Shown: positions 20,590 to 53,963 of the stretch, piece by piece | Numbering within the stretch: position 1 is the first letter of the stretch | Layout of the letters: each line of letters begins with the position of its first letter | From: Callorhinchus milii | Taxonomy: Eukaryota | Reading direction: 5' to 3' | Assembly (NCBI RefSeq): GCF_018977255.1 | Contig: NW_024704742.1 | Span: 120,034,001 to 120,098,000 of the forward strand | Length of the DNA stretch: 64,000 nt | Program-made: the position numbers and the translations under genes | The notes under the pieces: model-generated | Seen by the model: the letters and a program-made list of their open reading frames with translations, nothing else | What the model was told of the DNA's origin: nothing | Databases searched by the model: none

Positions 20590-22470
20590 ACCCTACCATG
20601 CTTTAGCCCTCAAGGGTACTGCTTTCAGCTTTTGCAACACTGTGTGCAACACGTCAGGGCACACTTAGTGACGATAATAATAAGAACAAGAATTAGGCCT
20701 ATTTCCAATAGAACCTGGACCGCACTGCCCAACCATCCTAGCCCCATACTTTGCAACCAATTACCCAGCCAATCCAATAATCCTCCTCCAGAATGTATAA
20801 TGATATTACCCGTATCCTGCCCCGTTTGGTTGATCTCTCTGGTAATATTCGAGATAGAACCAGAAAAATCATCAATTGTTATGCAGCACTCAGGTCCGAT
20901 GACCTTGCACACTCCTCCCGTCGCAGCCAAAACATAATCGAGGGCCATACGGTTCTGCATGGCATATAGACAAATCTCAGACATCTCCTTGTTAACGAGA
21001 GCCAATGCCGCAGATGTTTCAGAGGCCAATGAAGAGACTGCTTGAGAGAGAATGGCAATCTGGTCAAGGGTGCACATTACTCCGTAATTAGGGAGAAGAG
21101 CCCCGAGCATGCGATTCCACAGAGTCTGAGAGTGGGTGTAAAAAGGGTCGGCTCTACGAGAGTGATGAATCTGGCGGGGAGGGAGTAGGTTGGAATTATT
21201 CAGAACTTGTGGGGCCAGAGCAGAAGGCAGGGGATTGGTTAAACGAATCATGGGAAAATAGTGAGAGAGAGCACATCTCCCCATGAAATTTGCCTCCCCA
21301 TGAAATTTGCCGGTAAGTACGCATAGACAGTGGAATTACATACCCAATAGAAGCCTTATGAATTGGGGAAATGGCACAGCGCTGATTAACGGAGTATGTT
21401 AACATCCTGCGAATGTGTAACGGTAAAGCGATCTGGCAATCCCCGAAATTGGATGGGGGAACAGCCACCGCAGCATAAGGATATGTGGTGTTACAAAGGT
21501 GGGAATCCAGAAACCCCCAGTGGTTCAGTCCCAGAAAAGGACTCTACGCAGAACGAAAAACCCGCATAAACTGTAGTGGCAGTGCCAATCGTAGGGGGCT
21601 TGCCGCAGTCACGATTACACGCTTGTGGCTTCCAGGATTGGCGAGCACACTGCAATTCCTGTAGTTCTGAGTGTAACGGGGAACAAGATGGGTCTTGTGG
21701 TACTTGCAGGTAAAAAAGGGAACAAAGCTCACAAGTAGTCAAAGGGAAAGCCATCATAGGGTACTCCACCTGGACTGACGGTGGGGATAACCCACACACA
21801 TGATGCTGGGTTTTAGTTTTATGCAGACTTACGGTCTGGAGCATCTGAATGTAAACATTCTGTAAGCGGAAAGGCTGGGGAGAATCCGCTGATAAAGAGT
21901 CTCCAAACAAACGTAAGCGTGCAAAAGCAAGGGGATACATATCTGAAAAAGGGACATCACGAGGAGGTGGAACCAGTGTGGAAGGCAAATGGGACTCAGC
22001 TAGACCCTTGCGCCAGCCCTGAGGAAGTTCGACATAAATTCTAGTCCCATAGGAACCAGGGCGTAAAAACACAAAACTGGGTTTTGTTGGAAAACTGGGC
22101 GTGCTCAGTGGAATATAAACGAGATTTGGTAAAAGTACATTCATAATAAATGGAGCAGTCACACATTACCATGGAATTATTATGGACGGATTTACATTGA
22201 CCAGAATCCGCAGGACAATTCAAATCGTCAGAGTATGAAGTATCCTGAGTATTTTGTAACAAAAAATGAGCATTAAACACGGGAGATCGCTCCTCAAGGG
22301 GTACATCAGTATAACAAATGGCGGATGAACAGGGCTCAGACTGGTCATCGGATATGATGAGGTCTCAGTTTAAAGATATTAGGAGTTGGTAGACACCCTC
22401 TCCTGGGATAAGAGAGTAAACATGACAACATAGCAAGAACAATAAAACGCACACAGAAAACAGCTTCATA
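20590..22470 (-). pseudogene. env: ERV-A env (frameshifted)
   Basis: ORF 20625-21284 has the ISD MQNRMALDYVLA, CKVIGPECC (CX6CC) and a TM helix. SU is broken into ORFs 21491-22162 and 22041-22280. Confidence 0.9.
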
Positions 22471-22650
22471 ATGACACAAAGTCCGTTCAAAAAAAAAAAC
22501 GAGGTGACAATCGTTAGGCCTTTTCGCAGTCGCTGGAGTTCGTCGTGGCTTGCTTGCAGTGGCTAGCGTGAATCCATGTAGATCTTTCTCGAACCTTTAC
22601 AGCGGTGTGGGTCACCAATAGAATTTGGAATAGTCCTTCCCAGCGCGGGC

Positions 22651-23550
22651 TTAGTCCGTTCTTACGTTTGAAGGTCTTGATGTAAACAAAATCTCCTGGC
22701 TGAAACTTGTGGCATTGATCAGATGCCGATGGATGTTGGAGCGCTTGATTGAACCTGCAAATTGAACCTGCAAATTAAAGCTAGATAGGGTTTTAGTTAA
22801 CGCAATGTAGTATTGCATCATCCCTTCCTCGAGGGCATGCACATCAGGCAATGGTTCAATGTGTGCGGAGAAAACCATGGGCATCCTCCTTCCGAAAATG
22901 ATCTCATGAGGAGACAGTTTACTTTTTGTATTTGAATGGTTCCTCATTTGCATCAAGGCTAATGGCAAGACTGTTACCCAATTTAATTTTGTCTGCTCAG
23001 ACAGTTTGGACAATTTCAACTTTAGCGTCCCATTAGCCCTTTCAACAGCCCCTGCAGACTGGGGATGATATGCACAATGCAGATACTGTTTTATTTGCAA
23101 CATTTTGCAAATGTCCTTTATTACCGTGGCAATAAAGTGAGGACCATTATCGGAGGAAAGGCGAGATGGTACGCCAAATCGAGGAAGGATGTCTCTTAAC
23201 AATATTTTGGCCGTTGTCGTGGCATCATTCTTCCTACAAGGAAAAGCTTCAATCCACTTTGAAAACATGTCTACAATAACCCGAACATATTGATACCCTT
23301 CAGCTTTAGGTAACTGAATAAAGTCCATTTGGAGGTGCTCGAAGGGACCCTGAGGGGGAGGATGGGACGCCGGAGTCACATCCTCAACCTTGCCTGGGTT
23401 AAATTTTTGGCATATTAGACAACATTTTACAACCTGCTGGAGGAAAGGGGTTAATCCTGGGGCAAACCATGACTTCGTTATCCAACTATACATGGACTGC
23501 GTTCCCTCATGGATAAAATTATGCAACACATGTGCCATCCATGGGAACAT
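22651..23550 (-). CDS. pol: ERV-A integrase (zinc-binding region + DDE core)
   Basis: H...CLICQK, HLQMDF, RLSSDNGPHF, HPQSAGAVERANGTLK. Confidence 0.9.
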   Translation of the reverse strand: MFPWMAHVLHNFIHEGTQSMYSWITKSWFAPGLTPFLQQVVKCCLICQKFNPGKVEDVTPASHPPPQGPFEHLQMDFIQLPKAEGYQYVRVIVDMFSKWIEAFPCRKNDATTTAKILLRDILPRFGVPSRLSSDNGPHFIATVIKDICKMLQIKQYLHCAYHPQSAGAVERANGTLKLKLSKLSEQTKLNWVTVLPLALMQMRNHSNTKSKLSPHEIIFGRRMPMVFSAHIEPLPDVHALEEGMMQYYIALTKTLSSFNLQVQFAGSIKRSNIHRHLINATSFSQEILFTSRPSNVRTD

Positions 23551-23804
23551 TTGCTGGGGCAGGACTACTTTTAATTCGTTCGAGACCCAAATCCCTACGT
23601 CGTAAGCCGCTGGAGTCCCTTATCGCCCTTTTTAGCCGAGCTAAATGATTGTCCCATGGTATAGTTTAACAACGAAACAAGTGGTTGCCCCAACACAGTC
23701 AAAATACAAGCAATTATCTATTTCTATTTTCAACGGCCGATTCCTTATGCATGCAAGACTATCTTACTTAAGACATCTAACTTAACAATTACAACTTATA
23801 ATAT

Positions 23805-27126: not shown

Positions 27127-30100
27127 TGTTGAACCCAGGATGTAGTTGCTGTAGCTAGGATTAAATGAACACTCACAAACAGAGTTTGCTCAGAATTATT
27201 GTTTATTTAATACTTGCAGCAAGGAGAGGGAAAGTGAGAGGCAATACAATCGCACGTCTCTCAGAAGAGTCGGTACTCTCCCTCTACCAATGGGGCAGTC
27301 CCATTGGTTTACATACACAATTATTCGTGATTACTTTGTGCTTAACTTGTGTCTCAACCAATTCCTACTGTTGATTGACAAGCAACTATCTAGTAAATAT
27401 TCAATCATCACAAGCTTGATTATGTTTACAGACAGTACAAGGACACTGGTTCTGCTATAATCATCTACACTGTTGCTTAAAACAACTCGAATCTTATCAT
27501 AGTCTTAGACACTCTGTACTTCACATGATTTTTGTCCCTTTCTTAATGTAATATATATGTTTAATTATATGGGTCAGCACAATTTAGCAGTTTGTACGAT
27601 CTATATTCCCACACTCCTCCCTTTTATCCTTACTTAGGATAACTCAATTCCTTGTCTTATCTCACTTCTTCCTGGCTCTAAAAACGTAAGCTTCTTTGCA
27701 GTGTTCTTGGTACATTGTTGACAACAGGTTCTAAGTATTTTAATAAGTACATACAAAACAACAATGATTATAATTATTTCGAGTGAATACATTACTCCGG
27801 TCTTAATCCATCCACCTAATCCGTCAAATAGACCCGTAAACCAACCAAACAAACCCCAGCCTTGATCGTTATTAATGATTCCTGCAGCGTCTTTCCCTGT
27901 TTCATTAATTTAGTCAGTATAATTAGAAATTTGCCCCGAAAAATCATCAATTGTCATACAACATTCTGGTCTGATTAACTTACACACTCCTCCCGTAGAT
28001 GCAAGCACAAAATCTAAAGCCATACAATTTTGTAATGTCATAGCCCTAATTTCTTTCATTTCCTTATTAATCAATGCTAGTGCTGCAAATGTGGCATTAG
28101 CAAGTTTCGAAACATCAGCAGCCAATTCCTCAATCTGATCTGAGGCACACATCATTCCGTAATTGGGTAATAGTGCACCGAAGAACCGAGTCCATGTAGA
28201 CTGATGATGGGTAAAGAATGGATCAATTGATCGGCGCGTTCGGAGGCCCATCTCAGTAGGCATTTGTTTAGCCAATCGGATCATCGGTAAATAATGCCCT
28301 AAAGCACAGAGTCCCTGAAAGTCAGCAGGTAAGTAATTGTAAATTGTATCATTACAGATCCATTTAAAACTTTGTTGTGCTGAGGGAATAGTACTTCTGG
28401 GAAGTCGAATATGACACCATGTGTTGTACAGCTTGTTGCAAATTTGTTTTACAATTCAGGGGATGGGCAGAGAAATGTGAATTTTCAGTACTGTGTGCAT
28501 AGTCATAAACTTTCTTGCATAACTTGGCATTCAATTTTCCGAGAAAAACTGAGCCACTGGAGCTACTTATACATAAGTTATACAACCCAAGGACAACAGT
28601 GGCTTTGCCGACAGCCGGTGGTCTACCGCAGTCACGATTACATCCACCATGTACAAAAGGTTTATTGTTACACGTTATATGTATTGGCTGCGATTTAATA
28701 AGAGAACATTGAGTCCCATTTTCATCAATTCCCAACAGTTTTATCATACCACAAAGCTCACAATGCGTCAAAGGTATAGTCATCATAGGGAATCCCATGT
28801 GTCCTGACTGAGGAGACATTCCACAAACATAGTGATGTGAGTTATTTTTATGATCCACAAACGCTGAAACCATTTGAATAAACGTATTGTGAATTTTGAA
28901 GGGCTTAGGAGGAGATGAATCGGGTAGACTGGGAGAGTGAAAGATAAATTTGATTGGGAACAAATTGGCATCTGTGATTTGCAAATTGATAAGTTTCGAA
29001 TTATTAACTGCAGAGGTATAACCACTAGGAAACCCATCGCTGCTGGAGTCACCACTTTCATGAGAACCATTATTATCGTGTATAATAAATTCATCAGCAC
29101 CAGTTCTGTTTGGACGACAAAGGGATTGAGTAGTACAGTTAAATATAGCATGACAATAACAAAATTTAAAAGAATATACTAGTATACAAGTAATAGATCT
29201 ATTACAATTGTTAGATAAAGGGAATAACATTCAGTTAAATTGCTACACATAACGACAGTTGTTAACTGGTGTAGAAATGCTATAACATGAGGTAATCAAT
29301 CATACAATTAGCAGTGTTTGAGTAAGTACTGGACCCAACACCGAGAGATCTAACTATGAAAGAAAATAAAACAATACACATTAATAAACACCAAGTATGC
29401 GTCAACCATGACAGCACTAATTGAAGGATACAGAGGATGAACTGCGGCTGCGACCTGACTCTTGGCTCACGTCACTCTGCTCGCTGTCTGAGTCTGTTTC
29501 TTCCTTGTCCTTCAGTTTCGGCATGTCTACATCCTGCACCGGTACCTTTTTGCAGTGTGAGGCATGTACCATGTTGATTTTTCTTGTACTTAGACTGCAG
29601 TAAAGGTTGTTATTAATATTTGATTAGGTTCTTTCCAACGGGGAGAAAGTCCCATTTACGTTTGAACAACCTTCACATATACAAAATCTCCTGGCATAAG
29701 AGTGACAAGCTTCAGTTGAGGCCAGTTGTTGGAGCGCTTGTATCTGTTTAGAGAAACTGCATAAATATTTAGTGAGTTCAATACAATACGCAAGGATAGC
29801 ATCTTCCATATGATGAACATCATAATCAACCTTTTGTGGTATATCGAACATCATTGGCATACTGCGGCCGAAAACTATTTCATGTGGAGATAATTTGAGA
29901 GTTCGAGAGGTATGTGCCCGCATTTGCATGAGAGCAATAGGTAATACTTGTGGCCATTTAAGACCTGTTTCAGTAGTTAATTTTGCTAATTTTAATTTCA
30001 AAGTGCCGTTTGCTCTTTCCACGACTCCTGCTGATTGCGGATGATAGGAGCAGTGAAACCACTGATCAATTTTCAATACCTTGCAGACTTCCTTTACCAC

Positions 30101-32123
30101 TCGCCCAATAAAGTATGGACCATTATCACTTGACAATCGGAAAGGTACTCCAAACCTCGGAATGATTTCTTTAATCAAGTATATGGCCACAGTGGTAGCA
30201 TCATTGTGCCTGCAAGGCAAAGCTTCAATCCATTTAGAGAACATATCAACAACTACGAGAATATATTCAAGTCCCATTTCTTTGGGTAACTGAATAAAAT
30301 CCATCTGTAAATGTTGAAATGGACCCCGAGGTGGAGGATGAGCCGCCATGGCTACAGCTTAACCTTACCTGGGTTGTTCTTCTGGCAAATAACACAATTG
30401 GTGACGACTTGATTTAAATAAGGTGTTAGTCCTACAGCATACCAGGTTTTAGTTATCCAATTAAACATCGACACTCTTCCTTCATGTGTAAACTGATGGA
30501 CCAAATGAACAATCCATGGATATAGTATTTTGGGAAGTACATACCTTCCATCATTACTCACCCAAATTCCGTGATTATTAATATAACAATTGTCCTTTTT
30601 CCAACTAGACATTTCATCGGTAGAGGCTTGATACTGTAAAGTCCATACTTCATTTAGTCCATTTGAATTAAGACAATCGATATCCATTACACTTCAGTAC
30701 TACTAATCTTGATGGTAAAAGAATAGCTTTTAGTAAATTAAAAATATGCTTCCCATTTTTAATAGGCGATCCAGTAGAGGTGAGGTATCCTCTTTCTTCC
30801 CATAATCTGCCAAAATCATGACATACTGCAAAAGCGTATCTAGAGTCGGTATAAACATTTCATGTTTTCCCTTCTGATAAAACACACGCTCTTGTCAATG
30901 CAAATATTTGTGCTACTTGCGCAGATGTATTAGTTGGTAACTTATTACTTCCTACGATCTCAAAGTGTGTACATATAGCATAGGATGAGCATAACTTTCC
31001 ATTTGGGTTGTAACAAGCTGATCCATCCACATACCACTCATTGTCTGCATTAGTCAGTGGGGAATCCTGTAAGTCAGGTCTTGGTTTTGTTTCTAGATAA
31101 ATAACTTGTACACGGTTATGTGGTTCTCCTTCTGTTTCAATTGGTAATAATGTGGCTGGATTTAACGTATTGCACCGCTTAATTGTCAGGTTAAAATTTG
31201 ACAGTAAGCAACTTCGTATTTGCTAGATCTAGCACTGGTTAAATGTTGAGTTGCATGATTTAATAAACAAGCTTCCACCGCATGTGGAACATGTACTTCC
31301 ATTGGGTGATTTAAAGTGAATATTTCTGCTTGTATAACAGCATAATATGTTGCAGCAACAGCTTTAAGGTATCTCGGTAAAGTACGAGCTACTGGGTCAA
31401 AAGTTTAGTCGAAATGTAAGCAATAGGTCGCTGTTTTCCACAATGATCTTGGAAAAGTTTCTCATAGGTTGGTAACCCTAGTGCTGGCGCACTCTGTAGT
31501 GCCAATTTTAAATCATCAAAAGCTTTGTTTGCTGTTTCTGTCCACTGCAAAGGCTCTGGTGATTCTGGCTAAGATATATCCAATAGTGGTCTGGATAATG
31601 TAGCATATTCTGAAATCCACTGTCTACAATAGTTAGCCATTCCCAAAAAGTGCTTCATTTGTCTGATAGTATTAGGCATAGGAAAATTACAAATCTCTTG
31701 TATTCTTTTCTCACTAAGTGCTCTTGCAGCTTCGCACAATTGGTGTCCCAAATAAGTTAGTCAGACTTACCAATTGGAGTTTTTCCTTTGCGACTTTGTC
31801 CTTTTTCTGCAAGGGCTTTCAATAAGATTTTAGTATCAATTTCACATTCTTCTTCTGTGGGTGATGCTATCAGTAAATCATCCACATATTGTAGTAAACT
31901 TGACCCACCTGTTAATTTAACATTAGACAAGTCTTCTTTTAAACATTGTGAGAAAATTTTGGGACTCTCACAATATCCTTGAGGTATTCTTGTCCAAGTG
32001 TACTGTTCTCCTTTATAAGTAAATGCAAACAAATATTGAGATTCAACATGTATAGGGATTGAGAAAAATGCTGAACATAAATCGATTACTGAATAAAATT
32101 TCGTATCAGCTGGTATAGTAGTC
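27127..32123 (-). mobile_element. ERV-B: 3' half of an epsilon-like provirus (RT-RNase H-IN-env-3' LTR)
   Basis: LTR 27127-27613 and a PPT identical to that of ERV-A. env (RTRR, LQNCMALD, CKLIRPECC), IN 29624-30687, RT SVIDLCSAFFSIP...LLQYVDDLL. Confidence 0.93.
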
Positions 32124-35100
32124 TTGTGGAGGGAGGTGCCGGGAAGGCCGACGAGGAGAGAGTTCCCATAGTCCAGCCTTGAGGTAATAAAGGCGTAGTC
32201 CACAGTTTCAGCAGCGTGAGGGGTGAGGTAGTGCCTTAGTCTGGTGATGTTTCGGAAGTGATGGAAGGCGGTGCCAGTTGTGGCGCAGATATGAGGAAGA
32301 AAGGACAGCTCAGGGTCGAACAGAACGCTGAGGTTCCTGACTGGCTTTGAGAGGTGGAGAGTGCAGCCTTGGATGCTGATGGTGTCAGCGCCTGAGGTGC
32401 GGAGGCGCTGACGTGAGCCAATCAGGAGGGCCTCAGTTTTTCGCACGTTGAGCTGAAGAAAGTTGTCTCTCGTCCAGGACTCGATGTTGGACAGGCAACT
32501 GTCAGGACATCGGTGGTCGTGGAGTTGAGGGTAAAGGAGGAAAGGTAGAGTTGGGTGTCATCCACATACATGTGGAAGTTAACCCCATGTCTGCGGATGA
32601 TGTCACTGAGGGGGAGCATATAGAGGGTGAAGAGGAGGGGATCGAGGACAGAGCCCTGAGGGACGAGACAGTACAGGGGCTGGAGGAAAAGTCGTTTGTG
32701 GAAACAAAATGAAGACGGTGGGAGAGGTACGACCTAAACCACTCAAGGACAGGGCCTTGAAGGTTGAGGTGGGAGGACAAGCGGTGGAGGAGGATAGCGT
32801 GGTCGACCGTATCGAATGCTGCCGATAGGACGAGGAGGCAGAGGGAGCCCTGGTTGCAGATGGTCAAGATGTCATTGGTGACTTTGACCAGCGCGGTTTC
32901 TGTGCTATGGGCAACTCGGAAACCTGACTGAAGGGTTTCGAAGAATGCATGGGTGGAGAGGAAAGAGCGCAGCTGGGAGGCGACAACTCTTTCAAGGACC
33001 TTGGACAGGAAGGAGAGATTGGAGATGGGCCGGTAGCTTGATAGCTGCGACTCATAAGGGAGGGTTTTTCAAGGTGGGAGTGATGATGGGAGTTTTTAGG
33101 GGAATAGGAACAGAGCCAGAGGAGAGGGACAGGTTGATGATATCTGTGAGAAGTGGGGCAAGGAGGTGGAGCTGAGAGATGTGGAGTGGGGATGGGGTCA
33201 AGGGAGCAGGTGGTGGGTTTCAGGGACAGAATGAGTTTGGTGACAGAGGCTGGGGAAACGGGTTCGAAGGTGTGTGGGGGAGGATGGGTAGGAGTCGGAG
33301 TGTGGGAGGGAAGGGGTGGGGGGTGGGTGGAAGTTGGAGGGGGAGTGACCGCGGAGCGGATTCCCTTGATTTTGGATTCAAGGAAATCCAGCATCTCCTC
33401 GCAGTGAAGGTTGGCGGGGAGGACGGAGGAGTCGGGATGTGGTAGAAAACAGAAGCCTGAAGTTGTTCTTCACCTCCAGGATTATCCTGGAGTAGAAGGA
33501 CGACTTGGCCGAGGCTAGAGTGGAGCGGTAGATTTTGAGGAGGTCCAGCCAGATTGGTCGGTGGACCATTAGGCCAAATTTGAAGCAGGTGCGTTCAGCT
33601 GCCCGCACCTGGTTCTTCAGTGAGCAGAGGTGGTGGTGAACCAGGGGGAGGAGCGAGAGTAGGAGACAGTACGGGAGGTGATGGGGGCAAGAGTGTCGAG
33701 TGTGGAGGAGAGGGTGTTGTGGAGGAGGGTGAGAGGAGAAGAGGGGTCAGTGAGGGTTGAAGGCCAGAGGGAGAGGAGTTCAGAGGACTCCAAGGCAGCG
33801 GTTAGGGATTGTGGGGGTAACTTCTTCCAGGGGCGGTAGAAGATGGTGGGTGGTCTGGTGGAGGTGGGGAGGGGGGTGGAGGTGGTGAAGGAGATGAAGT
33901 GGTGATCGGAGACGGCCTTGTCGGTAATGGTGACATCCGAGACACTGAGGCTCCGGGTGATCACCAAATCGAGTGTGTGACTGTGAGTGGCGGAGTTGAT
34001 GTGGAGGGAGAGGTTGAGCGAGGAGAGCAGGGAGGAGAAGTCCGAGGAGATGGAGCAGGAGGGGGTGAAGTGCAGGTTGAAGTCGCCCAGGATGATGAGG
34101 CGATCAGGGCAGAGAGATGTGAGAAGTGTTGAGATATCAGAGATGAAGGTGGGAGAGGTTTTAGGGGCCGGTAGAGGAGGAGGATTTTAAGTGAGAGGAA
34201 GGAAGGGTGGGAGAGGGTGAGGTGCTCAAAAGAGGGGAAAGAGCCAGAGGAGTAGGGGGATAGGGCAAGTGGTGTCCTTGAGATAAGGGCAACACCACCG
34301 CCACGGCGGTTGGGGCGAGGGATGTGGTGGGAGGTGTAGCCGGGTGGTGTGGCCTCCGTGAGGGGGAAGGTGTCGCCTGGGGTGAGCCAGGTTTCCGTTA
34401 AGGCCATGATGTCAATGCTCTCATCAAGGATGAGATCGTTGATGACCAGGGCCTTGTTACAGAGGGAGCGGACGTTTTGTAGTCCGATGTGGAGGGAGCG
34501 GTTGACAGAAGGGTGTGTGGGAGGGGAGGGGGTCCAGGTTGTGAGGCAGGGGTGGGGGAAATGGGGATAAGGGAGGAGAGGTTGGCTCCCCGGGTCTGTG
34601 TCCGGGGTGGCTGGCGAGTGTGGTGGGAAATGGGGCAGTCGGTGTGGCTGCTGTTGGACAGCCAACGGGGAGTGCCACGGTGAGCCCGGCGGAGGATTCC
34701 CAGGCTGGAACAGAGGGAGGTTGTGGGAGGGTCAAGTGGGGATACAAGACGAGAGGGACGGAGAGAGAGAACAGAGCGGGAGAGATGTAGAAGGGGGAGG
34801 GTTTGGGGGGAGAGGGGAGGGAGAGGGTGCGGGGGCTCAGATCAGAGCAGCAGCCACAATGCGCACGCGGGGACCGGGAGCAAGCGGTCAGGTGGATGGC
34901 ATTAGCCCATAGGATGGGGCTGGGGCAGCCAAACCAACAGGACCATGGTGGGCCCTGATGCGAGCCCCGGGGGGCGCAGATCCTGAAACTAAACTATGAC
35001 GTCAGTGGTTCCCCCGCTCCGCGCCCCCCCCCCCCACACCCCAGCTGAACTCCCTGCCGCCTCGTGCTTTATACTACCTGAGAAGGTAGGCCCAGACTCC

Positions 35101-35128
35101 TCCCCGCGCTGTCCTGCCGCTGCTCCCC
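32124..35128 (-). mobile_element. L2 family A, 5' end intact, 3'-truncated
   Basis: Endonuclease 33961-34665 and RT fragments. Ends at TSLHK, fused to ERV-B RT. Confidence 0.92.
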
Positions 35129-38100
35129 TTACTTAAAGCGTACTTAATGAAGCCGTGAAGTAAATTACCAAACCAACCTCCAACATTAGGTATCCAGTCA
35201 AAAACTGGTTCTTCTGCGACAGCATGAAGAACTTTAATATTGGAATTGATGATAGCGATGTCAGTCTCGATCTGTTTTTGTAAGTTAACATAAAAACAGC
35301 ATGATTCATTGACAGCTACACAGACACCTCCTTGGGAAGCCAGCATAAAATCTAAGGCCATTCGATTCTGGGTGACAACTTTAGAGAGAGAATACATTTC
35401 AGATTGGAGAGCCTGTATTGCATTTTCAATTTGTTCCATGGTGGCTGATATATTGACAATAGCTTTTTCTAATTCGGGCATCCGAAGCCATGGGAGAAAT
35501 CCACAAACTAATTGGTGGAAACCCGTCCCTCGTATGACTAAAGGGTTTTCAATATTCCTTTTATGACGAGCGATAGGAAAATGATTGTATTATCTGTGCA
35601 TGAAGTGTTTTTACCCCATAAGCCTCAGGTACAATGTACCCAACTGTACAAGTACCGGCCCAATCCAGGGAAAGAGATTTGTAAGCTTTATTACCGCAGA
35701 GCCAAAACAAACCAGATCGAAGTAAGGTAGGGTATCCTGTAGTATTGCTAGCAACAAGTTGCATGGCGGTCAGGAGAGGGCCTCAGGTAATGTTACAAGG
35801 ATCGGGAGATGGACAAGGGGAAGTGATAGCATTAGTGAGAAGGAAACAATTACAATTAAAACTGCCCCCTTTTTCAGAATTCCAAGTATAATTAAAGTTA
35901 ATACCAAATGACGTGAAGAATAATTATGAGCCATTATGGCGTGTAGTAAAGGGGTGACCAGAATAAGATGGGGCTACCAAAGTGCTACACGTAAAACCTA
36001 ATGTGTATTGACAGGAGGGACTTGGCATGGAGTCTACATCAATACCATTGCCAGTGTCATTGCGCCGCACACAAAGGTACGCGCCTCCTTTAATAACTAC
36101 TGAAGTTGGTTGGCGTCTATGAGCAGAGATACAGGGAAGTGAACTTGTCAAGTTCTTTTCATACCAAGAGTTGTTTGCCAGCCAGTGTAGTTCAGAGGAT
36201 AAGGCAGTCTGAGGGGAGAGTGCGCATACCCAACAGTCTCTCTCATTTCCCTGGGTTACATGCGTTCAACAACTGAATTAGTCTTCCAGGTACTAGCAAA
36301 TCCCAACAAAACACAAAGTAATATACACTTATACATTGTAATTAATTAAACAGTTCAATTGGTAAAAGGAGCTGGCTTGACGTGCGTAGTGTGTATCCAA
36401 GACAGCCTCCCTTCAAGCTTTACGGCAGTATGCATTGTCAACAGGACAAGGTATGGTGCTTCCCACCGGGGCGCCAGGCAATTTTTTCTCCAGAAAACCT
36501 TCGCGTAGACATGATCGCCGGGTTGGTACTCATGGCAGGCATCTTCAGTCGGTCTCTGTTGTGCAGCTACTACCTGAGAATGGAACATTCTAAAAGATTT
36601 AGTTAATGCCATGCAGTAGGCTAACAGAGTTTCGTCCATGGCGTGCAGATCTGTTAAGCGATTTGGACTCGAACGCATAAGCATTAAGACAATCGGCAGG
36701 GCATGTGGCCATTTCGTACCTGTTTCAGCACATAGCTTCGCAAGCTTATTCTTCAATGATCCATTGTGTCGTTCCACAGCACCTGTAGACTGTGGGTGGT
36801 CGGGGCAAGAGAGATGATGTTTACAGTGTAAAGCTTTAAGTAATTCCTCAACCACCTTTTGCTACTGTAACAGCATCGCTTCTAGTGGGGTATGCTTCTA
36901 CCCATTGTGAAAATACATCTAAAATCACTAACACATATGTAAAACCCAAACATTTAGGCATTGTAATAAAATCCATCTGTAAATGTACAAAGGGTCCCCA
37001 AGGCTGCGGCTGTGATGCAGGCTGCACAGTCGTAGTCTTGCCCACATTATGTTTGTTACATTCAACACACTGCGTACTTATTTTCTCAGCTATAGTAGCA
37101 AATCCAGGTGCATACCAGGATTGTTAATAATACTTAACATCCCCCCTTTGCCCGCATGTGTAGAAGTATGACACATGTGAGCAAGTCAGGGCAACAGACA
37201 CTTTGGGGCAACCACGCGGTCATCGTGGGAGACCCAGAGACCTGTTTCGAGCTGGGAGCATCCTGCAGCCTTCCAGAGAGCAACCTCCTCAGTGGGAGAC
37301 TCAGCCTGGGATTGGAGGAGAGGTGACGAGGGAGAAGGGGTAGGATTCGTTTTAGCAACACACAATTTTACCACAACCCCAGCTTGGCCATGTGCAGCCG
37401 CTTTTGCAGCACAGTCAGCTCGGGCAGTACCAAGAGAGATATCATCAGAACCCGTAGTGTGAGCGGATCACTTAACAATAGCAACAGAAGGGGGTAATTG
37501 GATAGCACGCAAAAAGTTAAAATTAACTGTCCATGTTTGACGGTGGTTCCAGCGGAGGTGAGGAACCCATGAGATTCCCATATTGTAGCGAAATCATGAG
37601 CCACTCCAAAGGCGTATTGTGAGTCAGTATAAGTGTTGACTGTTTGTCCGTGTGCAAGACTGCAGGCACGGGTCAGGGTGAATAGTTCGGCAGCTTGAGC
37701 AGAGCAGGTGGACGGTAACCTTGCGGATTTGAGAGTGTCAGAAGAAGTACAAACAGAATAACCAGTTTAGATTTCCCCAAGGCTGGAACGAGAGCAGGAG
37801 CCGTCAGCAAATAAAATCAGAGATGGGTTGGTAAGTGGGAAGTCTTAAAAAAACGGTTTGCCGAGACTGCAGGCATGTTTATCAGCATAATCAATGTCAG
37901 TGCCCTGTGTGTCGTAGTAAGCAGTACAGTGGAGTTGGTGGTGCCACCTGTGGGGCTGAAAGGGAGCAGACGGTAAGTGCGGAAGCAGTGTAGGCACAGT
38001 GAATAGAGTTTGGAACTTACCCAAGATGGGTGTTGAGAAAGACGGACTCACGAGTTTCCACCACCAAACAGGCGGGCTGGAGGCCCCTGATGTTTCTTGA

Positions 38101-40300
38101 AGCAGAGCACAGGCAGGGGCATACTGCTGTTCCGGGATCTGTAAACTCGTACCGTCAGGAGTGCAGATTAGGGAACACCCCAGTCGACACAACAAGTCCC
38201 GTCTGAGCAGATTACACGGCACGCTGTCAGCCAGGAGAAATTGATGATCACCAGTCCATCCTTGCAAGTTACACTCAATATTTTCGGAGAGCGGATGTCC
38301 CGTGAGGCCAATCACATTGACTGAGGCGTTGGTTGCTTTAATACCGGGTAAATCAGAAGGTTTAATAGTAAAGCGAGTTGCACCTGTATCAATAAGGAAA
38401 GGAAGAGAACAACCATTTACAGTCATATAGCAAAAGGGTTCAGTGTCAGAATTTTCAGGTTCTTTCTGTGGTAATGCCCTGTGAGGGTTGCGCCACCGTC
38501 ACTGAAAGTTTGAATTATCGGGAGGTGGAGTAGGGAATGGGGCATTCATAGTAAAAGGAGCCCAATTCCCTTGTGCGCCCTCGCCTGCCGACGGCCATTG
38601 TTCGAGACCCCCAGTAGGGTTTCTTTGCGGACATTCCCTTGCCCAATGACCAGGCAGTTGGCACAAATGGCACAATCCTGGTTTAGAATTAAAATTTCCT
38701 CAGCCCCGACCTCTGCCTCGTCCGCAACCCCGTCCCCTACCGTAACCCTGATAATTGTTGTTAGGGTTTGGGTGGTCAGAAGACTGGACTAAGACGCACT
38801 CAGGCTTTTCTTTAATCTTTTGTTGTTGCGCTGGCAATTTGGCTCTAGCAATGCTGCAGAACGCTTATAATTTCATTTAACTGCTTAGCTTCCCATCCAA
38901 TACAAACGGTACAAAACATTTGCTTAATGCGTGGTTACAACCCGTTTACAATAGCATTTACCAAAGCAGGTAGTCCAGCCTCAGGAGTAATTCCCGAGTA
39001 TTTTTCAAAAGTGTTGTACAAACGGTCAACATATTCTCCCACATCCTCATCGGCTTTTTTTTGCAAAGTACCATGTATCTGCCCTATTGTTCCTCCTAGA
39101 TTTGTCTTTTTTCTTATTACTTTCGGTTAACCATAAGGTGTCAGCTCCCCAACCAACATTCTTATTCCTTCTTTTCTCTTCACGGTTCCTTAGGACATCT
39201 CCTAAGGTCGTCATTCGGCCACTATTCCAAGATCCCTCACTAGGGAAATTATTCCCTTCGCACCTTGACCATTTTTCCCACTTTTTTACATAATGAACAC
39301 TTTCCGGACCGTAATGTAATTACATATATGCACACGGCGTCCCTTTAGATGGACCCGTTTCTTTACTAGCGTTTTTCCCATTTTAAATCCTATTTAGTTT
39401 TGGTCTTATCTATGAGCTGCTCTTTTAAAACTGGCAATAAGGACTTGAACCTTATTGTCTTACAACGCTAGGGACTCGAACCCTAAACGCTGGGGACTTG
39501 AACCCCTAAACAACACTGGGGACTTGAACCCCTAAAGAATTCTTTCAAACGCTAGCGACTCAAACCCTGATCTCATGAAACAATTATGACGTATCCGCCC
39601 ATTCATACATTACACAGGGGTCAGACTGGGAATAGTTGAGAGAAAACTCTGAATCAACTCACAATCTACTCATCCTCCCGTGTAGTCAGAATCAGACAAA
39701 GTTAGTCATCTCGGTGGAACCTCCAGAAAACTGTTGTGGAATAAAAACTATAGACCACACAAACAATGAACAGTAATCAGTACAGGTTTTATTACGAGCT
39801 TTCTTACAAGCTTTATTACTAGCTTACCAGTAAGGGGAAGCACCCAATCAGGTTCCCAAGTCACCCGAGATAGTACTTCCAAAGAATGTACAAAAATAAA
39901 GGGTTATATTCTTTTTCTTAACAGATTATGTGGCATTTTACAACCAATGATTATTTCTTACCATGACCCGTGACATTTCTGCAGCATTTTCACATCCAAC
40001 CATAGCAATTAACAGTTTTTCTTTGTTTGCTATAATTTCACATACTCATATCAGAGTCATGTGATCTTACCTGACCCTGAAGAGTGGTACCATCTGGTTT
40101 TAACAATCATCTCTTCTAGTCTAGAATTGGGTTGGAATGTCTAAGACTTTGTGTAAAGACCTTCAGTAAGACCACTGTATAAGGCTATGTGACAACACTG
40201 TGTACGTGCTTCAATTATCTATCGCGTGAGCCAACCATGCATGTTGTCAGGGTAGTCTAACCTCTGTAGGCTGATGGTACTTTTAATGTCACCTTCCACA
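35129..40300 (-). mobile_element. ERV-C: epsilon-like provirus (5' LTR, gag, PR, RNase H, IN, env), with RT and 3' LTR deleted
   Basis: LTR ~39732-40300 (tgtggaa...ttccaca), PBS-Gln, CCHC CHLCQLPGHWAREC at ~38631-38672, PR FLIDTGA, IN HLQMDF/HPQSTGAVER, env TQNRMALD...CVAVNESCC. Confidence 0.92.
39708..39725 (-). promoter_or_regulatory. Primer-binding site, tRNA-Gln
   Basis: atctcggtggaacctcca on plus, identical to 24362-24379. Confidence 0.9.
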
Positions 40301-41200
40301 AAAGCAAACTTGAACTGATCATCCCTGGCGACCGGAATGCTCCAGAACCCATTTGAGATATCCAGAGTGGAGAACCATCGAGCACCTGGCGGTATTTGCT
40401 TCAGTACTTCTGACATTTCGCTTACAATTGGCGTGCACGGCGGGGTAACCTGGTTTAGTTTTCGATAGTCTATGGTCAGCCGCCAACTCCCATCTGGTTT
40501 CCGAACGGGCCATGTTGGTGGTGAACATGCCTTGTCGGATAACTCCTTGTTCCAATAAAGAGTCTATTGTCAATTTAACCGCGCTCAGACTTTCTTTAGG
40601 GACAGGATATTGCTTCACGGGTGGGTGAACTGGCCCATTTATGCCTTCCAACCCCTGCATTTGGTCGCAATCGTGTTTGTGGGTAGCAAAAGCAGTACTA
40701 CAGCGTGTAAGTAAATATTGGACTGAGCTGACGAGCGTATTGTATCCCTCTGCCGTTTTAATTGTGAACACGGCATGAACATCAGAGATTGATGTGTGTT
40801 TGCCCCGTGTGGCGCAATTCACCCCCAGCCTCTGGTTAGCATAGTCAATTATAATCCCGTGCTCCGACAAAACATCTCCCCCAAGTAGACCCGCCTTGTC
40901 ATGCAGGGAGACAAAAACTGGCTCGTCAAGCATTATATCGATGTCGGGTGTCAACTGCACACGCACCGGTTTTCCAGTACATCCTTTTGTTACGGTGCCT
41001 TTGAAGCCTGACAGCGACATCAAGCGTCCTGTTAAGTACGGCTCAGCGGGAATATGCTCACAATGTATCAGAGTGTTTGTGGCCCCGCTATCCACTAACA
41101 TCCGACTGTTCCTCCCCCAGAGATTTGTCTCGACAAATGGTTTATTTCCCGGTGTTTTAGCAAAGGGTATAAGTTTGCTATTTTCTCGACTATATGTCCG

Positions 41201-42868
41201 ACAACAACAACAACAACAAGATTCCATTTATAAAGCGCCTTTCACGTCAGGAGGACGTCCCAAGGCGCTGCACAGTTGGGTCATGACCCGAGCAGGGGGG
41301 AAATGGTCAGGGTGAGGGAAGGAGCGAGGAGGGGGGAAATGGTCAGGGTGAGGGGAGGGAAGGGAGGGAGCGAGGAGGGGGAAGAGAGTCGAGAGGGGAG
41401 CTGAAGGCTCGGTCAAAGAGAAAGGTTTTGAGACCGGCCTTGAAGGAGGAAAGGGAGGAGGCGGCGAAGGCACTGGGGGATGGAGTTCCAGAGCCTGGGG
41501 GCTGAGAGGCTGAAGGCCCGACCACCGATGGTAGGGCGGTTGGGGCGGGGGACGTGGAGCAGACCGGAGCCAGAGGAACGGAGGGTACGGGCAGGTAGGT
41601 AGGGGGATAGTAGGTCGGAGAGGTAGGAGGGAGCAAGGCCGTGAATGGCCTTGTAGGTGAGGATGAGGATCTTGAAATCAATCCTCTGGGGGATGGGGAG
41701 CCAGTGGAGGCGAGCGAGGGTGGGAGTGATGTGGTCGCGGAGTCTGGTGCGGGACAGTACACGAGCTGCAGAGTTCTGAATGACCTGCAGCTTGTGGAGG
41801 GAGGTGGCGGGAAGGCCGGCGAGGAGAGAGTTCCCATAGTCCAGCCTTGAGGTGATAAAGGCGTGGACCAGAGTTTCAGCAGCGTGAGGGGTGAGGTAAT
41901 GCCGTAGTCTGGCGATGTTCCGGAGGTGATGGAAGGCGGTGCCAGTTGTGGTGCGGATGTGAGGGAGAAAGGACAGCTCAGGGTCGAACAAAACGCCGAG
42001 GTTCCTGACTGGCTTTGAGAGGTGGAGAGTGCAGCCTTGGATGCTGATGGTGTCAGCGCCTGAGGTGCGGAGGCGCTGACGTGAGCCAATCAGGAGGGCC
42101 TCGGTTTTTCGCACGTTGAGCTGAAGAAAGTTGTCTCTCGTCCAGGACTCGATGTCGGACAGGCAGGCTGTCAGGACATCGGTGGTCGTGGAGTTGAGAG
42201 TAGAGGAGGAAAGGTAGAGTTGGGTGTCATCCGCATACATGTGGAAGTTAACTCCATGTCTGCGGATGATGTCACCAAGGGGGAGCATGTAGAGGGTGAA
42301 GAGGAGGGGACGAAGGACAGAGCCCTGAGGGACACCACATGAGACAGTGCGGGGGGTGGAGGAGAAGCCATTCGTCGAGACAAAATGAAGACGGTGAGAA
42401 AGGTATGACCTAAACCATTCAAGGACAGTGCCTTGAAGGTTGAGGTGGGAGGACAAGCGGTGGAGTAGGATAGCGTGGTCGACCGTATCGAATGCTGCCG
42501 ATAGGACGAGGAGGCAGAGGGAGCCCTGGTTGCAGATGGTCAAGATGTCATTGGTGACTTTGACCAGCGCGGTTTCTGTGCTATGGGCAACTCGGAAACC
42601 TGACTGAAGGGTTTCGAAGAATGCATGGGTGGAAAGGAAAGAGCGCAGTTGGGAGGCGACAACTCTTTCCAAGACCTTGGAGAGAAAGGGGAGGTTGGAG
42701 ATGGGCCGGTAACTTGATAGCTGCGACGCATCAAGGGAGGGTTTTTTGAGGGTGGGCGTGATGATGGCAGTTTTTAATGGAATGGGGACAGAGCCAGAGG
42801 AAAGGGGCAGGTTGATGATGTCAGTGATATGTGGGGCAAGAAAGTGGAGCTGGGAGATAAGGAGTGGA
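41201..42868 (-). mobile_element. L2 family A, 5'-truncated young insertion
   Basis: (CAA)n tail at 41201 and a 419-aa RT ORF at 41413-42672. Inserted about 20 nt after the host gag stop. Confidence 0.95.
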
Positions 42869-45028
42869 CCTGAGGGAGGAGCACCGTGTCACTGATTCGC
42901 CAACGAGCCCCCTTCTACCAAATTAACCTCAGGTCTGGGGGCTATGGTAGGTCCCGGCCTGGCCGACTCCTGATCTTTCAGTCTTTTCACCATTTCTAAC
43001 AGTACGGCATAGCTCACCTCGCCATCCCCCTTCCCTTCAGTCTTATTGAAATAGTGGACAGACTGGGTTATTTGTCCAATGGCTAAATCTTCCACATTTG
43101 TAGCAAGCACCCCTGCCCTTTTCATCTCTCTCTCGTCCATCCCTATCACTGTGGCTCCCCCTGACATATCCTTTGCCTTGTCGCTGCACTCTGCCTCTAT
43201 CCTCGCTCTCCCATCTATCTCTTCTGCCCTCTACCTCATCCCATATTGCCTCTTGCAGGGCATCGGGTTGTGGTTTTGGCATAGCTTGAGTGCAGCGTTT
43301 TAGCAAGCCTAGTAACTCGACCCAATCGGTATTTGGATTAACACCGTAACCTGCCGCAGCCCGTAACCCGGGTGTCAATTTACCCAAAAAACATTACTTG
43401 TATGACACCGAATTCTGACACTGCTGTTGATCCATATTCCCTTCAAGACATTTGGCATTGCATCTCCACAAACGCGTGTGGAATGCAGCCGGTCCTTCCG
43501 TCGGCATCATATGCATTTTCTCCATCTCGTTATGCGCATCAAACGATCCATTCAACAAATCAAAAATAGCAGCCTGAACATCGGCTGCAGTGGCCGCTGC
43601 GGTCCATATTTGCGCATCTAATATTGCCTTAATGATTCCCTATCAGTATCGCCTTCTGGTCTGTGGTGGACAGTCGGGGTGGCTTCATATGAATGCCTCC
43701 CAGCAAGCTTCCCATCGCGTCGGGGCCAATCCCGATTTGACTGGGCAACCTAGTTCTGAAATCAGTGCCTTCCTATCGGATAGCGGCAAAGGTCTGTCCT
43801 CCTCCACCTCCTGCCAACTGGCCCCTCACTCCCGCGGCAACCTCAAAATTCCTTTACCGAGTGATTGTGCACATATTGCCATTCCTGGTCTCGCTCTCTT
43901 CCTCACTTTCATGGTATCGTGTGGCTTCCTCCTCTAGACTTCCCCAGTCTACCCCGTTCACGGAGTCGGTCACCTTACTCCCTGTACAGACCGATATCAC
44001 TGCCCTCTGTATTCCCAATTTTTCCTCCATCTCCCGAATCCTCCTTTTGCATGTAGCATGGTCATGACTTCCCGTCATTCCCATTTTACCTTGAGGGCCC
44101 CCTCCAGGTCCCGAGTACGTCAGACTACCAACCTCTTCTAACTGCTTTTTCTCGGCCTTGCACTGCATCAGATCAGCGAGGTGCTGGCTTCCAATGTTGC
44201 TATTAATCTTCATCCTATTACGCTCACTTTCTAAGAAGCGCTCATTCGTCTGCTGAGTTTTCTATTCCAGTTCCCATTCCGCCTTCTCCTTCTCCCTGTC
44301 GGCAGCTAAAAGTTTCCTTTCTATCTCCCACTCTATTCTCCCCTTTTTTCTTTCGGCAGTTAGTGTGACCAGCGCTGCTGCCCCCTCTTTACACTCACCA
44401 CTCAACTTCTTGACTGACTCCCTGTCGGACAACCCTTGCCCGTCTATCTTCCACATGCAATATTTAAACACCTTTTCTTTTATCCTTTTGCCCCAATTTA
44501 AGTTTCACACCCTCCGTCTCTATTTGCCCTATTAACTTTTCGACTTCGGTCACTCCTTGCCTTAGCACCACTGTAGCACACTCCCAAGCCTTTCCTTTAC
44601 ACGCCTCTTCCAATTTCTTTTGAAGACTCCTCGCCCACTTAGGTTTATCACCGCTCTCCATGCTGGATTATCTGGTTTCAACGTAACTAGCCATTACAGT
44701 TTGTCCACCCCGAACAACTGACTGCTTGGCAGCGGTCTCACACAACAGCTGTCCCGCAACGATTGTACACCCAACACAATCACAACACGAATGACAAAAA
44801 AAAGTACACGACAAACAACCACAACAACCACCTCCTTCATACAAAAAAACCAATTCCCGAGAGTAGCTCGAATAACAACACACCCAATTATCAGCCGGGG
44901 ATGGCTCAAAAGAAACACACCCTATTATCAGCCGGGGATGGCTCAAATAATCAATACGCCTGTTTCTCCGACCGGGCACAAACCAATTCCAGTCATTCGC
45001 ATGACAAACCGCTGAAAATCCTGTCAAG

Positions 45029-45046
45029 ATCCTGTCGACTACGCCA
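45029..45046 (-). promoter_or_regulatory. Primer-binding site, tRNA-Ser
   Basis: Minus strand TGGCGTAGTCGACAGGAT matches the tRNA-Ser 3' end (ATCCTGYCGACTACGCCA). Confidence 0.8.
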
Positions 45047-46990
45047 ATTTGTTGTCCCAGTCTATATGCAGATTAAAATCACCCACAATTAATGTTTTTT
45101 CTTTACTACATGCTCCGCTAACTTCCTGATTTATACCTTGAGAGATACTGTGACTGCTGTTCGGGGGTCTATAAACTACTCCGCTAGAGTTTTCTGCCCC
45201 TTGTTGTTATGTACCTCTACCCATACTGACTCTACTTCCTGCTTTTCCGATTTAAAATCTTTCCTCAATATTGTTTTTATCCCATCCTTTATAAGCAGGG
45301 CCACCCCCCCTCCTCGTTTACCACAATGCCTATCTTTTCTGTACTCCCAAGTACAGAAATCCACATACCCTGGAATATTTAGCTCCCACCCATGATCTCC
45401 CTGTAATCATGTCTTGGTGATGGCTCCAAGATCAAACCCGTTTGTTTCTATTTGTGCATTTAGTTCATCTATCTTGTTTTGAATGCTTCGCGCATTCAGA
45501 TATAGCACCTTTACTTCTGACTTCAGGCTATTAGACCTATTCACCAGTACCCTATCCCTGGGCTTCCTTTCCCCGCTTGACACACTTTGCTCATCTCTCT
45601 GGTTAATCTGCTCTCCCACTTTCATCGGTCCTAATTTTAATTGTGACGGATTACGTGTGATTGATTTTACCCCCCCCCTTAGTATAAAGCCCTGCCTACC
45701 TCCCTATTTATTTGTGTCGCTGGGACATTTGTCCCAGCCCTGTTTAAGTGGAGTCCATTCCTTTGGAATAGCTCCTGTCTCCCCCAATACTAGTCCCAGT
45801 GATCCATAAAGTGAAACCCCTGCCCTCCGCACCAGTCTTTTAGCCAGGTATTCAGATCTTTCATTATTTTTTGCCTGTACCAATTTGTCCCAGGCTCAGG
45901 TAATAATCCCGATAATACCTTTGTAGTTCCACTCTTTAGCTTAACTCCCAATTCCTGGAACTTGCTCCTCAACTCGTCCCTACCAGTCCTACTGTAGGAT
46001 ACTGTTTTCAGTGAGAGTCTTCAGACGAATGAAAGTTTCAAAGAAGTTTTATTCAGTCCTGCAAACAGCCGCAGTCCAGGCACAACTTCCTCAGAAATTT
46101 GTGGCTGCAGAGAGCTTGTAAACCGGTTTAAGCTGGTTATTGTATCTTAGCTCACTCATCATAGGTATTGTTGTTGTTTTGAGTTCAAACAATGGTCTCC
46201 CACACCTACCTACAGCATTGGTCCCTATGTGAATCATAACTATTGGATCCACTCCCTCCTGCTTCAAATTTATCTCCAGCCCAGAAGTGACGTTCTTCAC
46301 CCTGGCCCCAGGAAGGCAATAGAGTCTTCTTGTCTCCCTGCTACGGCTGCAGAAAAGTGTGACAGTCTTCTTGACTGTCTCATCCCCAATTACCACTATA
46401 TTCCTTCTGACTTTGTGTGGCCTCCTATATAGAGGTGTTGGGATAAGTTTGCCCATCTTCCTCATAGACTTCCTTGTCCACACAGGTTGCAAGTATTTCA
46501 TACCTGTCGGACAAAGTTAAAGCCTGGGGTTCCTCTGCCCCGCTCTTTTGGGTCCCCTTACCCGCCTGTTTGACCGTCACCCAGCCCTGTCTGTGGCTGG
46601 TAACGTAATGTTCCCTGGGACTCGGGGGAGTGTCTGGCTCCAGGATGAAACTGTCCAGGAAGCTCTCCTCATCTCTAATGCTGCACAGTGTCTCCACCTG
46701 AGACTCCAGCTCAGCTATTCTAAGCTGAAGCTTCCTCAGTTGCAGACATTTGCTGCAGATGAAGTCACCCAGGCTCAGGTTGCCTTCCATCAACTCCCAC
46801 ATACCACACTCCTCAGACATCACCGACCAGGCCATTCTCTCCTCTCACTCTCTTTATCTCTATATTATTGTCATTAGAAGATATTCTACAATCTTACACC
46901 TACTTCCCCCTATGCACCTAATTCCCACTCTCACCCAATTCCTTCTCACTCTGGCCTCGCCTCAGTCTGGACGTAGTTCATTCTGGGCTC
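45047..46990 (-). mobile_element. CR1 LINE 5' part (5' UTR, ORF1 zinc/esterase, ORF2 endonuclease start)
   Basis: EECGMWE..FICSKC, VVIGDE..CLPGARV..VMIHIGTN, LYLNARSI, RGGGVALLIK, VGDFNLHIDW. Confidence 0.9.
45993..46204 (-). mobile_element. Short (212 bp) solo LTR with 5-bp TSD
   Basis: TGTAGGA...TCCCACA termini, TSD CCTAC (45988-45992 / 46205-46209), AATAAA on minus. Confidence 0.85.
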
Positions 46991-53640: not shown

Positions 53641-53963
53641 GGAGTCCTGTAGCTCAGTAGTTAGAGCACTCGCTTTGCAAGTGAGAGACCTGAGTTCAAT
53701 TCCAGGTCAGGGCGAAACCTTGGGCAAGTTTCCTTACTCCACACGCCTAATAATAATCCCTCCAAAACCAAAAAACAATAATAAAATTGGTCATTTTCAA
53801 TCTACAACTGTTTGTGGGACATTGCTGTGCGCAATTGGCTGCCGCGTTCGCCCACAAATATACAGTCAATTCACTTTACAGTGTGTTCTGTGAAGCGCTT
53901 TGGGACGTCCTCCCGACGTGAAAAGCGCTGTATCAAATGCAAGGATTATTATTATTATTATTA
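53641..53963 (+). mobile_element. tRNA(Ala)-derived Deu-domain SINE with L2-type 3' tail
   Basis: A box tagctcagtag, anticodon-like TGC loop, B box gagttcaattcc, Deu-like core tgtttgtggga..gctgtgcgcaattggctgccgcg, L2 stem-loop, (ATT)n tail. Confidence 0.9.

Follow-up and report, generated by a model that had tools for sequence, protein, structure and literature searches.

Positions 40,301 to 45,046 of a 64,000-nucleotide stretch of the Callorhinchus milii genome (the window) carry, on the minus strand, the remains of a retrovirus-like gag-pol region. The locus raises the question of which lineage of retroelements it belongs to and how translation passed from gag to pol. A sequence-only reading had proposed a lokiretrovirus with a tRNA-Ser primer binding site (PBS) and readthrough of an in-frame UGA. 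The element is a decayed 5' (front-half) fragment of an old endogenous retrovirus (ERV), and this copy is now dead. The best overall explanation, with a probability of about 0.72, is a fragment of an ERV related to snakehead retrovirus (SnRV) that used UGA readthrough when it was active.

Read 5' to 3', the element consists of the PBS, a leader, gag, a TGA codon, seven further codons, an L2 long interspersed nuclear element (LINE), the protease and the first third of the reverse transcriptase (RT). The order PBS-gag-pro-pol is that of the Retroviridae. L2 and CR1 are LINE family names which we presume to apply here; a landscape rich in both would point to a cartilaginous fish.

Placement of the reverse transcriptase

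The N-terminal third of the RT (40301-40738, minus strand; RVT_1 E=9e-9) ends before the LPQG and YVDD motifs. The motifs WRLTIDYRKLN and LDISNGFWSIP, on which the sequence-only reading had relied, are indeed present in a minus-strand open reading frame (ORF) at 40219-40563, and a pol frameshift was located near 40513. The epsilon-type motif DLCSAFFSIP was found in another element, near 32080, in agreement with the earlier claim of a retrovirus-type element distinct from its epsilon-like neighbours. The aspartic protease region (40853-41200, minus strand; Pfam RVP E=2.8e-5) contains DSGA, with the Asp codon at 41092-41090.

Database proteins were retrieved with the element RT in 15 of 34 candidate cases. 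The best was the Logan protein P0001 (72%), followed by turtle, frog and coelacanth proteins at 55-61%. None of 13 pattern matches between the element RT and viral contigs was confirmed. For the protease piece, none of 568 candidates among longer proteins passed, and a 50% representative library gave 13 matches, several of them unrelated (bacterial aspartyl proteases, repeats).

An RT tree was calculated from 50 rows, the element and 49 references chosen from 159 RT-bearing candidates. Six database proteins served as loki rows; they were recognized as such by the RWPM/CPFGY motifs in PMC7947760 Dataset S2. One or both of these motifs were displayed by seven proteins among the best 120 of 446 alignment-search matches, and six entered the tree. 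For unnamed viral loci, "gamma", "epsilon" and "foamy" are labels assumed from motif and tree position. The element was sister to P0001 (100/98), with Xenopus P0003 next (99/94), inside a 13-row clade of amphibian, coelacanth and turtle proteins (95/96) on the Retroviridae side (98/94). Separate groups without the element were formed by the loki (99/98), Gypsy (100/99), foamy (100/100) and gamma/epsilon (100/99) rows. A second tree, of RT plus tether with 29 rows, also placed the element on the Retroviridae side with respect to loki (100/99), and in both trees its RT stood outside the class I (gamma/epsilon) and foamy groups. Over 135 columns, RT identity was 67% to P0001, 48-67% to the clade members, 46% to SnRV and 39-47% to the loki-type rows.

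The lokiretrovirus label fails, because the RT groups with ordinary ERVs and because the loki grouping is rejected by the approximately unbiased (AU) test. Forcing the element together with the six loki-type proteins gave a tree 57.6 log-likelihood units worse (AU p=0.0027). The grouping with ordinary ERV clades is an outcome that the sequence-only reading had itself set against its proposal; grouping with Gypsy, another such outcome, was not observed. The two RT motifs proved not to be diagnostic of lokiretroviruses; WRLTIDYR occurs in loki RTs too. Among the loki RTs in the part of PMC7947760 Dataset S2 considered, Y[KR][IL]P was present in 24/24, WP[MV] following the IDYR/DLR motif in 23/24 and GFWS in 0/24. 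This tally (Y[KR][IL]P, WP[MV], GFWT) is our own count by eye and not a published definition. At the corresponding places the element has YPVP, CTPIV and GFWS, so the loki RT motifs are lacking; YPVP and GFWS are also found in SnRV.

The distance from protease to RT was 198 residues in the element and 199 in both SnRV and Xenopus P0003. Three further non-loki rows gave 188-208, and three rows gave no measure. Both loki-type proteins measured have a long spacer (588 residues), which is absent from the element and is not a published criterion. The closest relative carries LPQG and not PFG, and four loki Gag proteins, in the parts shown in PMC7947760, are without a zinc knuckle. In favour of a lokiretrovirus, the identity to the loki-type rows is near that to SnRV, and env, RNase H and integrase are gone from the element, so that three loki features are out of view: an env resembling the paramyxovirus/pneumovirus fusion glycoprotein, a tether with RNase H, and a CGIN1-related integrase. 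Taken with the AU result, a lokiretrovirus is highly improbable.

A Ty3/Gypsy retrotransposon, a foamy virus or an epsilon-like ERV was suggested by the best PDB sequence matches, namely foamy RT (E=6e-12) and Ty3 RT (2e-8), and by capsid leads in the ESM Atlas, which were Retrotrans_gag clusters. However, each of these three types forms its own group in the RT tree, with the full or nearly full support given above, and the element is not part of any of them. Its identity to those groups is 23-35%, and the relatives P0005 and P0007 have a tether and RNase H. Such an origin can be given hardly any credence.

It is therefore very probable that the element is not a lokiretrovirus and is part of the SnRV-related grade. 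Taken as that grade in a broad sense, clade Huo of Xu et al. 2018 (class III-like ERVs) is with high likelihood its best fit. Judged by RT sequence, the nearest relatives are unnamed ERVs of amphibians, coelacanth and turtle. When the element's group was constrained to join SnRV, the resulting tree was not rejected (AU p=0.285), and the free trees did not recover such a clade; for this reason the SnRV-related grade is meant in the broad sense only.

Several points weigh against this placement. The element was placed by 135 RT columns only, 44% of the alignment, and the trees were without ERV-L, HERV-S, alpha, beta (class II) and lentiviral rows. Plain identity fails to separate SnRV from the loki-type rows. 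In the RT plus tether tree, the element's group was not joined to SnRV, which leaned towards class I (89/98), and the support for the 13-row clade fell to 79/96.

The gag-pol junction

The decayed gag of about 600 codons (42889-44694, minus strand) runs from an ATG at 44694 to the TGA at 42891-42889 and spans 1806 nt. Along its most likely path there are five premature stops, and the frame changes three times, near 44505, 43640 and 43045; the change near 43045 falls between the zinc knuckle and the TGA. It comprises a charged helical N-terminal half, a capsid-like middle, one zinc knuckle and a C-terminal helix, and its pieces are 26-35% charged (SnRV Gag 30%). The single knuckle, CX2CX4HX6C (43105-43058, minus strand), is non-canonical, with a Pfam E value of 0.068, below the cut-off; by tblastn it matched the Gag knuckles of the reference loci L016 and L003 (E 3e-4 and 6e-4). 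The earlier description of a long, charged, zinc-knuckled Gag was thus correct in those features, but gag is not in one frame and the knuckle is not of the canonical type.

No Pfam match above the cut-off was obtained for the five gag pieces, and tblastn against SnRV Gag gave weak matches only (E 0.4-0.8). The ESM Atlas provided no more than leads, which were Retrotrans_gag clusters (0.92, where 50-55% of members carry the family) and zf-CCHC clusters (0.90). An AlphaFold model of a 49-residue gag piece, made without an alignment, was uninformative (predicted template modelling score 0.35).

Seven codons after the TGA, the element is interrupted by a 5'-truncated L2 LINE with a (TTG)n tail (41202-42868, minus strand; RVT_1 E=1e-31). 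This L2 has 96% identity to another of the window's copies and belongs to a family (D1) of 10 copies; its insertion is young relative to the decay of the element. The L2 homology extends from 42868 to the end of the last complete TTG unit at 41202, which gives 1667 nt, with one base common to both ends. With these boundaries, the simplest ones, and with the shared base counted once, the frames on the gag side and the pol side agree. Removal of 41201-42868 (1668 nt), as the sequence-only reading had it, puts the two flanks out of register by one base; its claim that one frame is restored by excising the L2 was borne out only with the shorter interval.

The TGA closing gag, with the hexamer UGACAC, is a candidate readthrough codon. 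Some 55 codons separate it from the knuckle upstream, and some 43 from the protease Asp downstream; in the reference loci these distances are 16-68 and 26-40. Taken alone, the TGA is weak evidence, because the copy is so decayed that a stray stop is about as likely by chance. At the observed density (5 stops in 897 codons), the probability of a chance stop in the 94-codon interval from knuckle to protease is 0.41-0.54, and the likelihood ratio of the TGA for readthrough is only 1.3-1.9.

The odds are raised by three further observations. The first is that an in-frame stop precedes pol in 8/8 reference loci, as TAG in seven and as TGA in L003. These loci came from 17 non-foamy ones; all but L001 and L016 belong to class I, and the element's own clade is not represented. 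The second is that 5/6 clade proteins with a visible protease motif start within 31 residues of that motif, which indicates that gag and pol are normally separate. The third comes from runs X1 and X2, both of one study, in which the sole contig over 42899 differs from the window at no fewer than five places and ends at 42867, which is 33 letters from 42899 by an inclusive count. Contigs end at forks in assembly graphs, and 42867 would be the fork expected of an L2-free, in-phase copy sharing exactly two more bases. An L2-bearing copy would extend the contig about 30 bases past this point. Provided that the contig does stop at this fork, the divergent copy should be identical to the window over the contig's final 30 bases, which include the TGA. 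No joint skipping the L2 was seen among 15 of 450 contig joints over 39600-45400, where L2 sequence dominates.

The main competing explanation concerns the same SnRV-related ERV, in which the TGA would be a nonsense change acquired after integration in a continuous or frameshifting gag-pol, and the in-phase flanks would be a matter of chance (1/3). It draws on the premature stops and chance probability given above, on the frame change between knuckle and TGA, and on points that count against readthrough in their own right. The stop-to-Asp distance of about 43 exceeds that of all eight reference loci. Latimeria P0005, a predicted protein, has a 262-residue Gag-like extension fused to the protease. 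Readthrough is also weakened by the position of the L2 break, seven codons from the TGA, where the LINE target may have lost a few bases. Against a nonsense change stand the in-frame stop at the junction of every reference locus and the in-frame amber codons described for OVEX1 (PMC2717909) and SnRV (PMC13517186). The stretch that precedes the TGA is similar to the C-terminus of SnRV Gag (KRLKD), though with E=0.75, and the contig end at 42867 would mean that the 30 bases containing the TGA are also present in a second, divergent copy. A secondary nonsense change is accordingly considered unlikely, and readthrough at the element's UGA, as the sequence-only reading had suggested, is probably right.

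Readthrough calls for no new mechanism, since published accounts describe it at UGA codons of fish and frog retroviruses. According to PMC13517186, the in-frame stop is UAG in SnRV and UGA in SSSV, ZFERV and RMEV, and UGACGG and UGACUA are type II readthrough hexamers; the same source states that epsilonretroviral readthrough lacks experimental verification. UGACAC is neither of these two hexamers but has UGA-C in common with them. In a narrow literature search, no account of UGA readthrough was found for the SnRV-related grade.

In the active element, to judge from the PBS, tRNA-Ser would prime reverse transcription. Gag would be translated up to the UGA, and a minority of ribosomes would read through into protease and RT in the same frame. 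After integration, the copy gathered stops and frameshifts and lost its 5' long terminal repeat (LTR). As it now stands, the RT is cut by an epsilon-like ERV and the element is split seven codons after the UGA by the young L2.

Comparison with known retroviruses

SnRV Pol is represented by P0012, which is 99% identical to locus L001. This locus measures 10,688 nt and has a UAGGGC junction, both in agreement with published SnRV values (PMC13517186, PMC12193657). The two elements share a charged Gag of about 600 codons with one knuckle, a stop before the protease that is in frame (in the element, under the simplest L2 boundaries), nearly the same protease-to-RT spacing and the RT motifs QYPVP and LDISNGFWSI. 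They differ at the junction, which is UGA-CAC in the element and UAG-GGC in SnRV, and in the PBS, which is of Ser type in the element and reads TGGCGAGCC... in SnRV, presumably corresponding to tRNA-Arg. The RT identity is only 46%, and monophyly with SnRV was neither recovered nor rejected. SnRV-like ERVs have been reported from elephant shark (PMC4422223), coelacanth and zebrafish (PMC4977317) and frogs (PMC4131045).

Closer in the RT tree are ERVs of Xenopus tropicalis (P0003), Latimeria (P0005), Rhinophrynus, Pyxicephalus and Chrysemys, together with Logan P0001, all of the same clade as the element. Their identity is that given above for the clade, and the spacing is alike where measured (199, 208). 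They differ from the element in that several have whole pol ORFs, and they are known here as proteins and not as junction DNA. The proteins P0003, P0005-P0007, P0009, P0032 and P0034 are named "NYNRIN-like" or "Gypsy retrotransposon integrase-like"; these names do not classify, because SnRV-related and loki-type Pol both bear them. In two frog members of the clade, P0007 (residues 1214-1291) and P0004 (C-terminus), a signal-like stretch and a weak Ig-like domain follow pol (Pfam E=0.012, below the cut-off). This may mark where an env with an Ig domain begins, or else a fusion in the gene model.

An in-frame UGA at the gag-pro junction is also described for SSSV, ZFERV and the cane-toad ERV RMEV (UGAAGA, UGACGA and UGAAGU, respectively; PMC13517186), and UGAAGA was seen directly at the junction of L003. 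In contrast to the element, these viruses are called distantly related to epsilonretroviruses (PMC13517186), and L003 falls in the gamma/epsilon group of the trees, away from the element. Lokiretroviruses (PMC7947760) resemble the element as vertebrate LTR retroelements with WRLTIDYR and a similar raw identity in the first third of the RT; they differ by their separate clade, other diagnostic RT motifs and a protease-to-RT spacing three times longer. Locus L016 (170-6949), like L015, is a contig from a metagenome, in which a retrovirus that is not of class I has its gag, pol and env frames open. Its junction has an in-frame TAG-CGC, and it groups with P0010 and P0054.

Had the loki reading been true, it would have widened lokiretroviruses to cartilaginous fish as a new host group; PMC7947760 records them in 0/6 chondrichthyan genomes. 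As an SnRV-related ERV, the element is one more decayed record of clade Huo, which is SnRV-related, includes class III ERVs and infects all major vertebrate lineages (PMC6001957). In the cases of the SnRV-related grade that were compared (SnRV, OVEX1 and L016), the stop codon is UAG. If the UGA holds across copies, the SnRV-related grade would join the epsilon-related retroviruses of fish and frogs as a group with UGA readthrough, a minor matter of interest to those who study recoding.

Ends of the element and surrounding transposons

At the 5' end, the tRNA-Ser PBS proposed earlier was confirmed at 45046-45029 (minus strand) by sequence match. Of its 18 bases, 17 match the beginning of a human tRNA-Ser template oligonucleotide given in PMC3299991. 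The leader (44695-45028, minus strand), read directly from the sequence, contains a 24-nt direct repeat (44887-44910 and 44924-44947). Beyond the PBS lies coding sequence of a CR1-type LINE endonuclease (45047-45703, minus strand), which is not part of the ERV. It was recognized by Pfam (Exo_endo_phos_2, E=1.8e-5 on 45048-45179) and by contig depth, which was in the thousands from 45032 and in the tens inside the ERV. Since the endonuclease coding sequence reaches about 45050 and the depth jumps there, at most a few bases of the 5' LTR are left. The segment 45047-45230 was considered as an LTR end and rejected, as the endonuclease match lies there. Divergent contigs over gag point to a small multi-copy family.

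The ERV starts exactly at its PBS (45046-45050), LTR-free and adjoining the LINE endonuclease coding sequence. Minus-strand DNA synthesis ends at the PBS if the second strand transfer fails. The locus could on this basis be an unfinished reverse transcript that was captured by template switching, giving a retrovirus-LINE chimera. Its source would be an unnamed, early-branching retrovirus lineage with tRNA-Ser priming and UGA-C readthrough, and it would have been trapped in a one-strand pile of transposons that may be a PIWI-interacting RNA (piRNA) cluster; this reading is decidedly unlikely. The plain alternative to a chimera is a deletion that happens to end at the PBS.

At the other end, the RT is truncated by the LTR of a different, epsilon-like ERV (39735-40300, minus strand; 566 nt, with the ends TGTGGAA...TTCCACA). 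That ERV has its own PBS at 39725-39708, which we take to be of tRNA-Gln type, and a TLV_coat env further downstream; the label "epsilon-like" comes from this env and from motifs assumed to be characteristic. Depth is about tenfold higher over the LTR. Single contigs cover the joint between RT and LTR in both runs (40271-41116 in X1 and 40276-41116 in X2), so the joint is not an assembly error. A search of the 64-kb window did not find the element's own LTR, RNase H, integrase, env or 3' half. The other RT, near 32100, overlaps the RT fragment of the element, and all three integrases sit with other ERV pieces.

Besides the element, the window contains three epsilon-like ERV remnants, at 20628-23619, 27703-32200 and 35077-40300, which include integrase and env. 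The envs of the first two are alike; in the third, the 5' LTR (39735-40300) looks intact and the PBS is a different one. Long transposable element (TE) pieces between 2477 and 63824 of the window lie on the minus strand in 18/18 cases (11 L2, 3 CR1-type and 4 ERV), with p about 8e-6 if the pieces are independent. The queries were the window's own TE proteins, and other families are outside this count. The pile-up on one strand could reflect a uni-strand piRNA cluster or the intron of a plus-strand gene, and it may merit more attention than the element itself. A short interspersed nuclear element on the plus strand (53644-53942 and 1509-1551) forms an exception to the strand bias; it has a tRNA-Ala-like head, as detected by ARAGORN, and a tail like the L2 3' end.

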